Assembly: GCA_039545335.1 (NCBI GenBank)
Contig: BCIN01000002.1
Coordinates: 2,758,678-2,822,677, forward strand
Origin: Kondoa subrosea
Lineage: Eukaryota
Reading direction: 5' to 3'
Length of the DNA: 64,000 nt
Part shown: one piece after another, positions 5,853 through 21,621 of the stretch
Layout of the letters: each line of letters starts with the position of its first letter
Numbering within the stretch: the stretch's first letter is position 1
Position numbers and translations under genes: made by a program
Notes under the pieces: generated by a model
Database searches by the model: none
The model's input: only the letters and a program-made list of their open reading frames with translations
What the model was told of the DNA's origin: nothing

Positions 5853-8410
5853 ATGGCGTCCAACACAAGCGCGCTGAATCTTCAGCCGCAAGCCTCGACG
5901 TCTGCGCAGCTTATCAATCGACCTCCCTCGCCAGCCAACAGCGCAAACAGCGAAGGTTCAGGTCGACGCAACTTGAGACGCTTAAGCCTTGATTTTAATG
6001 AAAGGGCACCTTTACTGGCAGCCAGCAACAGCAACCTGGACTTACTAAGTATTCATGTCGATAGACCGTCTACACCCAGCATAGCTCAGAAGAGCTGGCT
6101 ATCGCATCCCATCACAAGTTCAGAGCAAGATTACTCTGAGCAATTGCCTCTGACACCTGGAGGCTCTACTTCTTTCTTCTCGCAACCTCGAGGACCAGTC
6201 CCTCGAGCTACTCTGATCTCTCGAATACGTCTCTTCTTCCTACAACTCTACACCAATGCCTTGTCAACAGTTTTTCTTGTTCTTATCGTAATATGGGCTT
6301 TGTCAAGTCGTTCTCTTGAAGCCTTATTAGACTGGAAACGCTGGAAACAATCAGCTAAACGGGATTGGGATCAACCAGATAAATGGAAGAACGAAGAGCT
6401 GACCAAAGATCTCAATTACTACGCCGAAGCAGCAGGCTATCGAATCGTTGATCAAACAATCGAAACGGAAGATGGATATCTGTTGAAAGTGCATAAAGTT
6501 GTGGTACCTGGGAAAGAGAATCAGGTTAAGAGCGATGGAAGAGGAGGTTGGCCGGTTATTATTCAGCATGGCTTGTTTCAGACTTCTGGAAGCTTTGTGA
6601 CTAGTGAAGAGAGAAGTATGGCTTTCTGGTTGGCAGAACATGGGTGAGCTGGCTGGTTACTTCCAGACAAGTTATTGAGCTACCAGGCGATTACAGGGGC
6701 TATCAAGTTGTGCGTAGCTTTCATTTCTGCCTGAAATTCATCGTTGATCATGCCATACAGTACCTGAGCAATAGTCGAGCGGTCTTTGACATGGGTCACC
6801 GGACGCTCAGCAGATCAGATCCGCGGTTCTGGGGTCAGCACCGTTCTGCGATTTGAAGCACTAAATGTACTCACACCTTTAAACAGATTACAACATCAGG
6901 GAACTTGCTCTCTACGATCTTCCAGCTGTTATAGCACACGTCAAGCGAGAAACCTCTTACGACAAAGTTGCTTTCATTGGTCATTCTCAAGGCAACGCGA
7001 CCATGTTCTGCACTCTAGCAAGAGGCATGTTCCCTTCTGTTGGAGAAAGCCTTTCCGTTTTCGTCGCTTTAGCCCCAGCTGTTTTTGCTGGTCCTCTGAC
7101 GACTGGCTTTCCATTCGGTCTGCTAAAGAGTATGGAATGGAAAACCTGGAAGAGGGTTTTTGGCGTGAGCACTGCGTTTTCCAGTATCTATCTCATTTCC
7201 TAAATCCATAAGACAGGTACTGGATTTTATACCGATGATGCGATATGCATAGTATGCCTTATATCAGTCGAAAAGGATAGCTTAGGGCTTATTTGTCCTG
7301 AAAGCAATCTCACGCCTGCCCGACCATATGGACTCCTTGGGTTTCAGATGTTTGCATTTCTTTTCCAGTCCGTCTAACCTTTGCTACACGTCGACTACTG
7401 ACTGATTCGCATTGCAGGGTAAGGCATCCGTCGATCTAGTTCGGCCCGAGTACTCACAACCATCCAGTGGACTGATAGGAATTGGTAGGCTTTTTGAGCG
7501 GTTCGTCTTTGAAATGCTGATGAACTATTCTTCAGGGTATGCCGCTTTACACTGCAAAATCAGACAGCTAATTGAATCACCCAAGTTGAAAAGGCGAAAG
7601 ATGAAGATGTTCAGGTGGGTCAAACCAAGCTTTACCCGCATCAGCTCTGATAGTTCAATTTAGATTTACTCCTAGCCCAGTCTCCTCTGCAGGTATTTTC
7701 TGGTGGACTGGTAAGAATGGTTTCTCCAGTAGAGGCTGTGTTCTTGATCAATCCGTACGCTTGCAAGCCGAAGATAGCGCCCAATTGACATTCGCATAGG
7801 TACCGCAATGGTTTGATAAGTCCTTTCCACCGCTTGCGTTATATCAGTGAGTCTTTTCTGACGATTACGAGTTGGCCTAATTTCTCTTTAAGCGGTGGTA
7901 AAGACTATCTGGGTGCGTTCTGATCAATGTGGGCTTATAAAAAGCTGGATCTCGACGCGATGTAGTATTGATTGAACCTCTGCTGGCGCGCTTGCAAGAC
8001 CACGAGAAAGCGGTCAAAGTCATGCAAGTCTCATCCTGCTCGGACATGCCGTAGAGGGCTTATAATGCACTTTACAGTCGCGTGGATCGCTTAGAAACAG
8101 GTGCGATCGTGTCTCTCCCACTCTTATGCACTTTCGCTGATTACATTCGGAACAGGCGAACAGTAAGCTTATCTTACTTGCTCCAGTTCGCGCTCATGGA
8201 CCTAACATAGCTGTGATACTTTCTGGCACATCGATGCTGTGGAGCTTACGTAAGACTTCTGGCTTGAACTACAATGCTTTGCCTGACGTTCGCAAACAGC
8301 TATCAATCAATTTTGCGTAAGTCACATCAGACAGGAAATTGACTTATAGGCTGACTTTTGGTATAGATGACGTGGAGAGCACGAGAGATCGCTATCCAGA
8401 GGAACTCTAG
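5853..8410 (+). CDS. Membrane-anchored AB-hydrolase lipase/sterol esterase (Tgl1/Yeh-like)
   Basis: TM segment, IETEDGYLLKVH, QHGLFQTSGSF, nucleophile GHSQG, GGKDYLV acid and GEHCD His. Many micro-exons, including two 1-nt exons. Confidence 0.9.
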
Positions 8411-12903: not shown

Positions 12904-14039
12904 ATGACTTTCCGCGCTCCGCAGGCTCTGGGATGCATTCCGAGCATCGTCAACAGTCGGATGCTGTTGGCCGGTCGCGCGCTCTCAACCTCCAGCTCGC
13001 GACAGAGTTCCACTGCTATTGATTTATGTGAGTCATACATTACTAGTGCCTTGCCTTCTGTGTGCGTCTGACTCTGCAATCTTCATAGCAAAGCTCAAGA
13101 TGAAGAAAAGGCGCAAGCGAACAGTGGGTCATCCTGCCTCATCCTTTGGTATACCTATACTTGCTGAAGCTCCTGCATGTGATCTCTTTTTCTTAGTTAT
13201 TGGAATTGAACAGACTCTACGCTGCCAAGACTCCAATAACAATGCTTACAGCTTACGACTATCTATCTGGTAGTTTGGTAGAGAAAGCAGATGTAGACAT
13301 TTGTCTGCTTGGTGATTCTTTAGCAATGGTTGCTTGCGGCTATGAGAACACGAATCAACTCACGTTGGATGAAATGCTGTATCATTGTCGTTCGGTCGCA
13401 AGAGCAGCAAAGACTCCTTTGTTGGTAGCAGATATGCCTTATGGTACTTACCAACTTTCTGTTGATAATGCGGTTGCGAATGCAATGAGATTGGTACAAG
13501 AAGGTGGAATGGAAGCAGTTAAAATGGAAGGAGGCTTAGAAATAACGGAAAAGATTGCAAGATTGACTTCGGTCGGCGTGCCAGTTATGGCACATATCGG
13601 ATTACGGCCTCAGCATCATGTCGCTCTCTCCGGATTTCGTGTTCAAGGCAAAACAGCATCTTCAGCAGTTCGAGTTTACAAAGATGCCTTGGCAATGCAA
13701 GAAGCTGGAGCTTTCTCTATTCTCATTGAAGCTGTACCTTCTCGTCTGGCTGACTACATTACCAAAAAATTATCGATACCTACAATAGGCATAGGAGCAG
13801 GGTCTAAATGCTCGGGTCAAGTTTTGGTCACATTGGATATGCTTGGAGGTTTCGACCGTTTCCTACCTCGGTTTGCTAAGCAATACATGAATCTCAATGA
13901 ATCTGCACTTGAAGCTATTGGTAAGTATGCCGAGGAAGTCAAGAGTCGCACCTTCCCGGATGAAGAGTTGCACACATATCCGATGGCAGGCGAAGAGGAG
14001 TGGGATAAGTTCCTGATCGAGGCTGAAAAGATCAAGTGA
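12904..14039 (+). CDS. ECM31: 3-methyl-2-oxobutanoate (ketopantoate) hydroxymethyltransferase, mitochondrial
   Basis: PITMLTAYD, LLGDSLAMV, VADMPYGTY, AVKMEGG, PVMAHIGLRPQ, IPTIGIGAG. The Arg/Ser-rich first exon resembles a mitochondrial presequence. Confidence 0.95.
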
Positions 14040-14142: not shown

Positions 14143-16952
14143 CTAATGCCGCTGCAAATCAGGTCTCCTCTTCATAGACCTCTCTATATCTCCAATATTG
14201 CCGATATTGAACTCGCTAGCCATACCAGCTCTTGCCGGCTTCAATCCTCTACCTTCGAGAGCTCGACCAGTTCTTGGCTGAACTACTCTCTTGTTCCCTT
14301 CATTTGCGGCAGTCGCCGCAAGCTCTTCCAAATCGAGATCACTTTGGCCCTCTTCAGAATCGCTTGCACCTGCAATCTTTCGGGCGCGTTTGATTCCACC
14401 AGCAGCCTTCTCGGCAGCTTTCTCTTTTGCTGAAACAGCCTTCTTTCCTCCAACGACTCGACCCATGCCTTTTGGCGCTTCACGAAGACCGAAGGCTTTA
14501 GCAAGATGTCCAAGATGAAGGTTTTTGACGTGGAAAAAGGCTTTCTCTTCTGAGGGATGGGTAGCATAAGCACGAGTATGGGAAGCGAAAGCAGATCGAG
14601 CTAGATTAGCATTCTGATTAGACAAAGCATTAGAGCAAATTAAGCAATAGATGGACAAGAGTCACTGACAGCTGTTTGATCTTCAACCCAGCGCTCGAAA
14701 GCCATTTGTACATCTGTAGCTCTTGTTTCATAATCTTTTGCCGCTCCTCCTAGTCCATTAGACAGGACTTCATCCACTGACACCTCTTGTAATCTAGTTA
14801 CAGCACCTTCTTCAACAGCAGCCATCTTTCTTTCCGCCCATTCTACCCAACCAATTTCCGAGGGTAGAACAAACGCCCAAGATTCGCCTGCTGTTCCTGC
14901 ACGAGCTGTCCTACCCACCCGATGAATGTATTCGGTCGCTCCACCTTCAGTTGGTAAATCGCATTGAACGACACATCGAACATAGGGTACATCAATACCT
15001 CTTGCTGCCAAACTCGTGCAGAAGAGAATAGCAGGACCAGGTGCATCGGTGAAAGCTTTGAGGGAAGCCATTCGAGTAGGTAGATCCAAAGAACCATGTA
15101 AGCGATAAATGGGAGTTTTAGGCATGAGTTGAGAATATTGAGCTAAGGCTAAACCGTCTTCATCTGTTGGTGTAGCTTTCTTGGCCATTTCTGCGTCCGA
15201 TGCTCGACCCATCGCTAAACCTCCTACAGCTGACCAATGTAGGTCTACTGAGTCGGTACATGACATGAAAACGAGAACTTTGCGCCCGGCTGATTTAGGG
15301 GCTTTCAAGGTAGCTGGAGAAGGTGTCATGACTTGACGTAGCAGAGCAAGAAGAGCGACAAAACGTAATTTGGGAGGTACGACAATGTAAGATTGTTGTA
15401 ATTGACTCGGAGGCGCGTGTCGAGTATCAGCTGAACCTTCTGGTCCACTTTGACTTAGACTTGGATCTCTGAGCACTTCACCAGCAAAGTTCTTGACGTT
15501 GCCTTGCATAGTAGCAGAGCATAGGACAGCTCTTCTTCTGGGTCTGGATGAAGTGGGAGGTCTGGCTCGTCTTTCAAGGTTTTGCAGTATATCCTTTATT
15601 TGAGGCTCGAAGCCCATGTCCATCAACCGATCAGCCTCATCCAAGACCAACCAGCGTAAACCAAGCCTTGGATCTGGTTGAGCTGGTCTAGGCGTATAAT
15701 TCGGTATGCGAGGCTTATATGAGCGAGAAGTAGGTTTAGAGAAATCATCGTCGTCTGATTCATCTTCCGCTGTTTGGCCTGTTCCATCAAAAGTCTGATC
15801 TTCGTAGGCGAACTCGTCGTCTTCCGATATCTTCGGCTTCTTTTTCGGTCGCAAACTTGGGTCAGGGGTAGCTTTGATGGTTTCACCAGCTAGACGAAAG
15901 CTGGTGGTAGTTTGCAAATGATCCAAAAGACGACCGGGCTGTCAAAAAGGGATCGCACTCAGCAGCCAACAAGCTGAAAAGCGCGTGTCTCCACTGACCG
16001 TTGCTATCAAAAGTGGTACACCTTTCCTCAACCTCGCTTTCTCGTGCTGTCTCGACATTCCTCCGGAAAGTAGACCAGGTGTAAGCCAGCGATGAGAATA
16101 CTGTCCCTCTTCTTCTTTTTTCTCGCCCTCTTCATCTTTCCTAGCACTTGAGAAAGACAAGAGGTTCTGGGCGACTTGATAGATCTGATTGGCCAATTCT
16201 CTCGTAGGTACAGTAACGATTGCCAAAGTGCCAACAGATCGATCAAGAGGTTTGCCTTCTTTTGCGAATTGGATAGAAAGGGAAAGCAGATCTTGTACTA
16301 TTGGTAATAGGTAAGAGAGAGTCTTGCCTGAACCTGTTTGAGCTTGGATGATGTGATCTCGCTCCAACTGAGGTATTAGTAAAGCAGGAATAGATTGTTT
16401 CTGAATAGCTGTCGGTCGAACTAGATTGAATTTACTTGACTTCAGCGTTTCGCTAAGTTGATGAGTGAGACCAAGTGAAGCGAAAGAGCTCCCTACAGCC
16501 GGAGCATTACTAGGTTCTTGCACAACTTGTGGTATAGTCTGAGGTTTTACGACTGGCAGAGTAGGCAAAGAAGAAAAGAGAGAAGAGATGACTTTCTGCT
16601 TTGTGCCATCTGACCTGTTGCTTTGCTGTGGTCGCGAAGTAGCTTCAGCAAGAAATTCTGGCACAGCATCATTGTCTTGAGTTGCACTAAGGTCATTTGT
16701 TGCTGGAACAGCAGACGTTTGCACTGGAGCGCCAGCAGTAGATCTCTTTGGAGCGATCTTGGTCTTCTTAGCTGGCGCAGAAGCAGTCTGATCCTTTACT
16801 AATTTTTGCACTCCAGTTTTCCGAGCAATAGTTTGACTTCGCTTGACTCTGTCCGTCCATCTCTGACTTGTAGCTTTTGATCTGCCCGCGCTGACTTTCT
16901 TGACTGGCCCAGAAGCGACTGGCTCAAAGTTGAAACTTAAGCCTTCGTCCAT
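14143..16952 (-). CDS. DBP7: DEAD-box RNA helicase Dbp7 (60S biogenesis)
   Basis: [69 protein letters not shown], and the C-terminal [12 protein letters not shown]...[16 protein letters not shown] typical of Dbp7. Confidence 0.92.
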
Positions 16953-17103
16953 TGCGGTAAAAAGTGATTAATAATACAAATTGCTTCAATAAGGCATGAC
17001 AACAAGACTGCATCCCAAAACGACTCCTTTTCATTGGTACATTGATAGTATTACAAAAAGCAAGTTGCTAAACCCAAAACAAACGAATACAATGTACTAT
17101 GCA

Positions 17104-21621
<4,518 letters not shown>

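Follow-up and report, generated by a model that had tools for sequence, protein, structure and literature searches.

Two putative single-nucleotide exons, each flanked by complete short introns, in a lipase gene of a Pucciniomycotina-like basidiomycete

The 64-kb stretch of contig BCIN01000002.1 analyzed here (the window, at its whole length) carries on its forward strand a lipase gene with a coding region at 5853..8410, in which two of the exons would consist of a single G, at positions 7418 and 7536. The gene model was built by hand and checked by script. It runs from the ATG at 5853 to the TAG at 8408-8410 and comprises 19 exons and 18 introns of 45-55 nt, 17 of them GT-AG and one GC-AG, encoding a product of 548 aa (548 codons plus the stop). 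A homolog search with exon 1 as the query gave, among 4052 candidates, 27 longer homologs at E values up to 0.001. The named ones include proteins of Mixia osmundae, Microbotryomycetes, Ustilaginomycotina, Tremellomycetes and Agaricomycetes, labeled at their source as sterol esterase or lysosomal acid lipase. Exon 1 matches PF04083, the N-terminal partial AB-hydrolase lipase region (E 5e-15; 55.2 bits for a cutoff of 27), and the nucleophile elbow GHSQG is encoded by exon 4, on which alone PF00561 scored 16.7 bits, under its cutoff of 25.8. The product is thus a predicted member of the acid lipase / sterol esterase family (PF04083 plus an alpha/beta hydrolase fold). No indel separates the model from the 27 homologs along the whole length between the lipase N-terminal region and the shared C-terminal end (...YPEEL), GHSQG and the G-E-H histidine motif included, and the E-H-C-D stretch with the conserved C-terminal His could be aligned with every full-length homolog. 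Since the alignment passes without indels through GHSQG, G-E-H and the C-terminal end, the gene is predicted to be intact, with an uninterrupted frame of 548 aa and both motifs and the family C-terminus kept.

The two single-nucleotide exons (1-nt exons) lie 118 nt apart, and the order of introns and exons between 7368 and 7585 is the one that an earlier note on this DNA had described from the letters alone. Exon 6 (7305..7367, 63 nt) ends in CA, the first two bases of a Gln codon. It is followed by intron 6 (7368..7417, 50 nt, GTCCGT..GCAG, phase 2; branch CTGAC/CTGAT, A 12 nt from the end), by G7418, the third base of that Gln codon, which precedes an invariant Trp and is needed for the frame, and by intron 7 (7419..7467, 49 nt, GTAAGG..TCCAG, phase 0; branch CTCAC, A 11 nt from the end). 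Exon 8 (7468..7484, 17 nt) encodes W-T-D-R-N and the TG of a second Trp codon, as supported by sequence, model and alignment. After it come intron 8 (7485..7535, 51 nt, GTAGGC..TTCAG, phase 2, inside the codon as TG/G, where the slash marks the intron; branch CTGAT, A 15 nt from the end), then G7536, the third base of the invariant Trp codon in N-W-L, and then intron 9 (7537..7585, 49 nt, GTATGC..CCAAG, phase 0, just past the codon as TGG/; branch CTAAT, A 14 nt from the end), which has a weak AAG acceptor. Exon 10 (7586..7614, 29 nt) begins with TTGAAA and encodes L-K-R-R-K-M-K-M-F plus part of an Arg codon. Intron 10 (7615..7663, 49 nt), recovered in the model and in the exhaustive search described below and absent from the relatives examined, is the fifth intron within a stretch of 296 nt. 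The arrangement AG-G-GT is therefore present twice, at 7416-7420 and at 7534-7538, and the four branch-like sites listed in the earlier note are all there, at the distances given.

The introns flanking both G residues are complete, and typical of the gene in donor, branch site and length. Introns 6 to 9 measure 49-51 nt, compared with a mean of 50.9 nt (standard deviation 3.0, range 45-55) for the other 14, and in each of them no AG occurs between the branch A and the terminal AG. All four, like 9 of the 14 others, have their branch A at a distance of 11-15 nt from the AG, and the donor has a G at +5 in 18/18 introns of the gene. Position weight matrices (PWMs) for donors and acceptors were trained on those other 14 introns, a small and self-scored set. 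With them, the donors of introns 6 to 9 scored 4.7-6.1, inside the training range of 3.6-10.2 (intron 6, 4.8), and the acceptor of intron 6 (5.6) fell inside the range of the 14.

To what extent such an arrangement could appear by chance was evaluated on both strands of the 64 kb using strict intron criteria, namely a GTNNG donor, a length of 43-60 nt and a CT[ACG]A[CT] branch site 9-17 nt from the AG. Two pairs of candidate introns one base apart were found in the whole window, both at the sites described here, and pairs 0, 2 or 3 nt apart were absent. In 100 first-order Markov (Markov-1) random sequences the mean number of one-base-apart pairs was 0.02 and the maximum 1. The pairing exceeds chance. 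Furthermore, intron-like candidates in the window were in excess over random sequence only at 45-59 nt with GTNNG donors; there was no excess at 90-104 nt, nor for donors without G at +5.

That both G residues are needed follows from the conservation of the protein. Conservation in the family is highest between M-F-A-F-L-F and P-V-S-S, and the spacing of this stretch is identical in the 24 homologs (of the 27) that cover it. Within this stretch, G7418 completes a variable codon before the invariant Trp and G7536 completes the invariant Trp of N-W-L, so that the fixed spacing in the homologs would place both bases in the mRNA. We then carried out two types of search. In an exhaustive one, all GT-AG introns of 35-260 nt were considered and the conserved spacing was demanded; a single solution was returned, with five introns (introns 6 to 9 plus 7615-7663), and none with four or fewer. 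In the other, a purpose-written protein-to-DNA spliced aligner (intron cost 14, codon gap 9) was run with proteins of Mixia, Microbotryum and Kwoniella as queries. Introns 7485-7535 and 7537-7585 were found in the three runs, despite the cost of 14 for each intron. With the Mixia query, 16 of the 18 introns of the model were recovered exactly, and just the pair of the first site was missing; with the Microbotryum and Kwoniella queries the last two introns were also merged into one. The lipase frame was thus found to depend on both lone G residues, as the earlier note held, in the homolog alignment and the exhaustive search and, at the second site, in the spliced aligner and the orthologous loci presented below.

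For G7536, neither the exhaustive search nor the aligner gave a canonical alternative. At the first site the same is true as long as indels are excluded; if they are admitted, there is a weak canonical rival that had escaped the earlier note. It consists of one GT-AG intron of 96 nt (7372-7467, donor GTCTAA, phase 0), which would add one Ser after the Gln and before the invariant Trp. Its ends are canonical, it keeps the frame, and the spliced aligner at its default penalties picked it with all three query proteins, because its scoring charges 9 for a codon gap and 14 for a second intron. However, its donor has A at +5, where all the introns of the gene have G, and scores -2.3, under all 14 training donors and no better than 90 of the 128 GT sites in the gene span, which score at least as high. 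Its length is about 15 standard deviations away from the intron lengths of the gene, and both the length and the donor belong to the classes for which the window shows no excess, which also counts against it. Moreover, neither the 24 homologous proteins nor the related loci show an insertion at that spot, and the complete, well-spaced internal branch site, AG, G and good donor would have to be a coincidence. Altogether, we consider the 96-nt intron unlikely.

Relatives of the gene were also searched in metagenome contigs. The scan gave 80 loci that encode relatives, 69 of which span the site, and their introns were mapped by a motif-guided search and the spliced aligner; the 69 include many near-duplicates recovered from different samples. 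A single intron inside the Trp codon (TG/G; model position 423, phase 2) is present in 35 of the 69 loci, and a single intron just past this codon (TGG/; position 424, phase 0) in 10. Another 20 have no intron in residues 415-427, and in four (the locus L066 and three distant paralogs) an intron is present at another nearby position. None of the 69 carries both the TG/G and the TGG/ introns; the window carries both, which makes G7536 an exon. All 10 TGG/ loci are most similar to Microbotryomycetes proteins, and the six of them placed in a tree are in the Microbotryomycetes clade, whereas the TG/G loci resemble Tremellomycetes or Agaricomycetes and, as far as they were placed in the tree, sit in the Agaricomycotina clade. 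In this tree, a quick maximum-likelihood (ML) one built with IQ-TREE and evaluated with the Shimodaira-Hasegawa-like approximate likelihood ratio test (SH-aLRT), the window groups with Mixia and the intronless contig L001 in a Pucciniomycotina clade (SH-aLRT 99), outside the Microbotryomycetes clade. By this placement the host is predicted to be a Pucciniomycotina-like basidiomycete. Since TG/G and TGG/ are each used singly in other clades, both flanks of G7536 are real intron sites. The earlier note had suggested that an alignment of orthologous loci could reveal conserved AG-G-GT junctions. What the alignment gave was the single use of the two second-site flanks, in the 35 and 10 loci mentioned; the double arrangement was seen in 0/69, and so were the introns of the first site.

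Other intron positions of the gene are also shared. Written as residue and phase, 263.2 and 479.2 are exactly common to the window and the Microbotryomycetes-like loci, 534.1 to the window and the Agaricomycotina-like loci, and 292.1 to all three. This suggests that the window may retain old introns lost in other lineages, and introns 6, 7, 10 and several others appear to be specific to its lineage. The contigs L001, L003 and L006 (2.6-2.9 kb) encode the whole conserved enzyme part with zero introns; they are probably derived from transcripts, and hence uninformative on intron positions.

Another possibility is that each pair forms a single intron, roughly 100 nt long, whose ends are non-canonical: TC..AG or GT..CA in the case of the first site, TA..AG or GT..AA in that of the second. 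The mature mRNA would be identical, and the retained G could then be a neighboring G. The locus L066 offers some parallel: this distant metagenome relative (L066:1760-1900) carries, at the same Trp codon, an intervening sequence of only 33 nt, which under GT-AG is likewise one base short of the frame. L066 could be a damaged copy, a contig error or a case of a non-canonical intron, and it may be no more than one of the first two. Furthermore, the explanation demands splice-site pairs outside the known classes, twice, and lengths of about double the narrow class of 45-59 nt. It also ignores complete internal splice signals for which the chance expectation is 0.02 per window, as well as the match, at the second site, of both internal junctions with intron positions of other fungi. 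We regard it as very improbable.

The lone G residues would be meaningless if the gene were a pseudogene or if the assembly were wrong at the junctions. In this respect, the own protein of the gene was not found in a collection of 5.8 billion proteins, where the best identity was 52% among longer proteins and 77% among those of similar length. On the other hand, the other 14 introns and all the exons give the frame of 548 aa with GHSQG, G-E-H and the C-terminus, free of stops and indels, and an error would have to be two independent one-base errors placed exactly on the junctions of double-length introns with full internal signals. Such an explanation is hardly credible. Frameshifting or editing was set aside as unnecessary.

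In addition to the choice of the aligner at the first site, some points weigh against two 1-nt exons. Acceptor scores are low for introns 7, 8 and 9 (2.3, 1.7 and -3.7, against 4.9-8.9 in the training set); the acceptors at 7467 and 7585 are required under every alternative too. An intron at either flank of G7418 was seen in none of the 69 loci, so that, unlike the second site, the first has no comparative support. Because of the near-duplicates, the independent lineages behind the 69 loci are far fewer than that number. Finally, the structure of the mRNA has been deduced from protein conservation only. With these points taken into account, G7536 is very likely a genuine 1-nt exon, for G7418 we hold the same with good confidence, and that both are genuine and constitutive is probable.

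Regarding the splicing itself, we propose that G7418 and G7536 would act as constitutive 1-nt exons, each placed between two complete U2-type GT-AG introns of about 50 nt. Each of introns 6 to 9 would make use of its own donor, branch site and acceptor, and would be recognized by intron definition. At AG-G-GT the upstream acceptor would overlap the region of the downstream donor that pairs with U1, and therefore the paired introns would be removed consecutively and not simultaneously. This would resemble the use of a recursive splice site, but with one base staying in the mRNA. We infer that the upstream intron would be removed first, which fits the order of transcription. This order is weakly indicated: removal of the upstream intron changes the PWM score of the downstream donor from 4.7 to 4.9 at the first site and from 5.9 to 7.2 at the second. 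The ordered splicing proposed in the earlier note is consequently a reasonable assumption, with slight support from the donor scores. Either order would lead to the same mRNA, in which the G completes the Gln codon at the first site and the invariant Trp codon at the second.

The 1-nt exons could also be real and at the same time work as a regulatory switch, in which a skipped G would cause a frameshift and turn the enzyme off, as the earlier note had speculated. As read from the sequence, omission of either G does produce a frameshift or an immediate stop, as that note had stated, which fits the lack of solutions with four or fewer introns. In plants, isoforms with and without the 1-nt exon of VPS55 are described (PMC8831610). 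However, nothing in the sequence hints at regulation and the skipped forms would encode no useful protein, so the switch found no support here and we think it improbable. Constitutive inclusion of both G residues is the reading followed below.

The simplest account of the origin of these exons would be that a new intron arose a single base from a junction already present. For G7536 we tentatively suggest, as a possibility somewhat short of even, that it may be the surviving intermediate of a one-nucleotide intron shift: TG/G would be ancestral in Basidiomycota, TGG/ would have been gained in Pucciniomycotina, and the older intron would then have been lost in Microbotryomycetes. If true, this would be an "intron sliding" by way of tandem introns and a one-base exon, and not by way of a stwintron. 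A literature search, limited in scope and terms, found no proposal of a one-base exon as an intermediate of intron shift.

Two further introns of the gene lie 2 nt off widespread positions (385.0 versus 384.1, and 515.2 versus 515.0). The intron 7165-7216 is located after a Gly codon (385, phase 0), and 19 related loci have it within that codon (384, phase 1). The intron 8163-8210 is at 515, phase 2, and 31 loci have one at 515, phase 0, three of which are doubtful 37-nt GC introns. Both may be further products of a gain next door followed by a loss. Taking these displaced introns together with the about a dozen introns that the lineage of the window gained in the lipase gene, gain beside existing junctions may be a habit of this lineage. 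An introner-like origin was considered and rejected. None of the 18 introns matches other parts of the window significantly (the strongest similarities are exact runs of 9-14 nt, at E values of 0.008 or higher), their similarity to each other is no higher than that of shuffled pairs (top score 8, versus a shuffled maximum of 11), and the two intron-G-intron units are unrelated (mutual score -7). Among these introns there is therefore no sign of introner-type elements or of duplication.

Other features of the gene deserve mention. Exon 2 (6697..6709) has 13 nt, and exon 16 (8156..8162) has 7 nt and lies within the G-E-H motif that holds the conserved His. Intron 14 (8024..8077) is the sole GC-AG intron (donor GCAAGT), the single non-GT donor among the 18, and is needed for the frame and for the alignment of V-K-V-I-R-V. 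These three features are supported by the gene model, the alignment and the spliced aligner. From position 7165 on, about 0.5 kb of coding sequence is split by 15 introns. The neighboring genes show long unbroken frames (13197-14036, 14643-16967 and 17332-19487), with a ketopantoate hydroxymethyltransferase of 280 aa, DEAD/Helicase_C stretches of 433 and 341 aa, and SMC stretches of 229 and 299 aa. The extreme fragmentation therefore belongs to the lipase gene and not to the whole region.

The lipase gene would be a new addition to the published 1-nt exons, and its chief interest is the co-occurrence of two intron positions that are used singly elsewhere. As G7536 lies between positions used singly by other basidiomycete subphyla, one-base intron "sliding" becomes testable in a few Pucciniomycotina genomes. 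With four complete introns and two one-base exons in 218 nt, the gene would be an extreme example of intron definition. It also offers natural material for asking how overlapping 3' and 5' splice sites are used in turn. On the practical side, gene finders and read aligners will break the lipase gene at both sites.

Adjoining 3' and 5' splice sites are also found at the ratchet sites of long Drosophila and vertebrate introns, where removal of the upstream part regenerates a donor. Ratchet sites keep zero nucleotides and subdivide very long introns, while in the lipase gene the introns have 50 nt and one base is kept.

The published systems closest to this one come from plants and fungi. In plants, a 1-nt exon, an A, is present in APC11 of Arabidopsis (PMC4674806), and the 1-nt exons of APC11 and VPS55 are found across land plants (PMC8831610). 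Like those proposed here, these exons are constitutive, lie between two spliceosomal introns and tend to escape annotation; unlike them, they are conserved across land plants and were validated by reverse transcription PCR (RT-PCR) and reporter assays (PMC4674806, PMC8831610). In fungi, the long-read annotation of Coprinopsis cinerea includes 13 one-nt exons (PMC12230235). This species is likewise a basidiomycete with short introns and many microexons, in which one-base exons are normal and the frame breaks if they are omitted. However, its exons form a genome-wide count in 13 different genes, and two in one gene are not stated in the excerpts of the report (PMC12230235).

In Fusarium, the cytochrome P450 genes CYP621A have a 1-nt exon with the AG-G-GT layout, confirmed by Sequence Read Archive (SRA) reads (Nelson and Syed 2026, PMC12940212). 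The likeness to the lipase gene is close: both are fungal nuclear genes in which a lone G is needed for a conserved motif and the frame, and both exons were deduced from the spacing in homologs and from an apparent intron of about twice the usual length. The differences are that CYP621A, in an ascomycete, has one such exon per gene, with the G in the middle of a Gly codon, whereas the lipase gene, in a basidiomycete, has two, each the third base of its codon, predicted from DNA and homology (PMC12940212). The earlier note had assumed that 1-nt exons are very rare. They are rare, but with published cases in fungi (PMC12230235, PMC12940212) and plants the novelty is lower than it assumed.

The last system to be compared is the stwintron. 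A one-nucleotide intron shift has been explained via an alternatively spliced [D1,2]/[A2,3] stwintron (Fekete et al. 2017, PMC5587772). Stwintrons are defined by an internal intron that sits within a splice signal of the external intron, and they leave no nucleotide behind (PMC5587772). The earlier note had separated the lipase gene from stwintrons on the latter ground, and we agree: a stwintron reading was rejected, since one base is retained, no splice signal is interrupted, and the signals of each intron are intact beforehand. What the two systems have in common (PMC5587772) is that two short fungal introns abut at a G-rich junction and are, or in the lipase gene would be, removed consecutively, and that orthologs carry single canonical introns one nucleotide apart, as if either partner had been lost.

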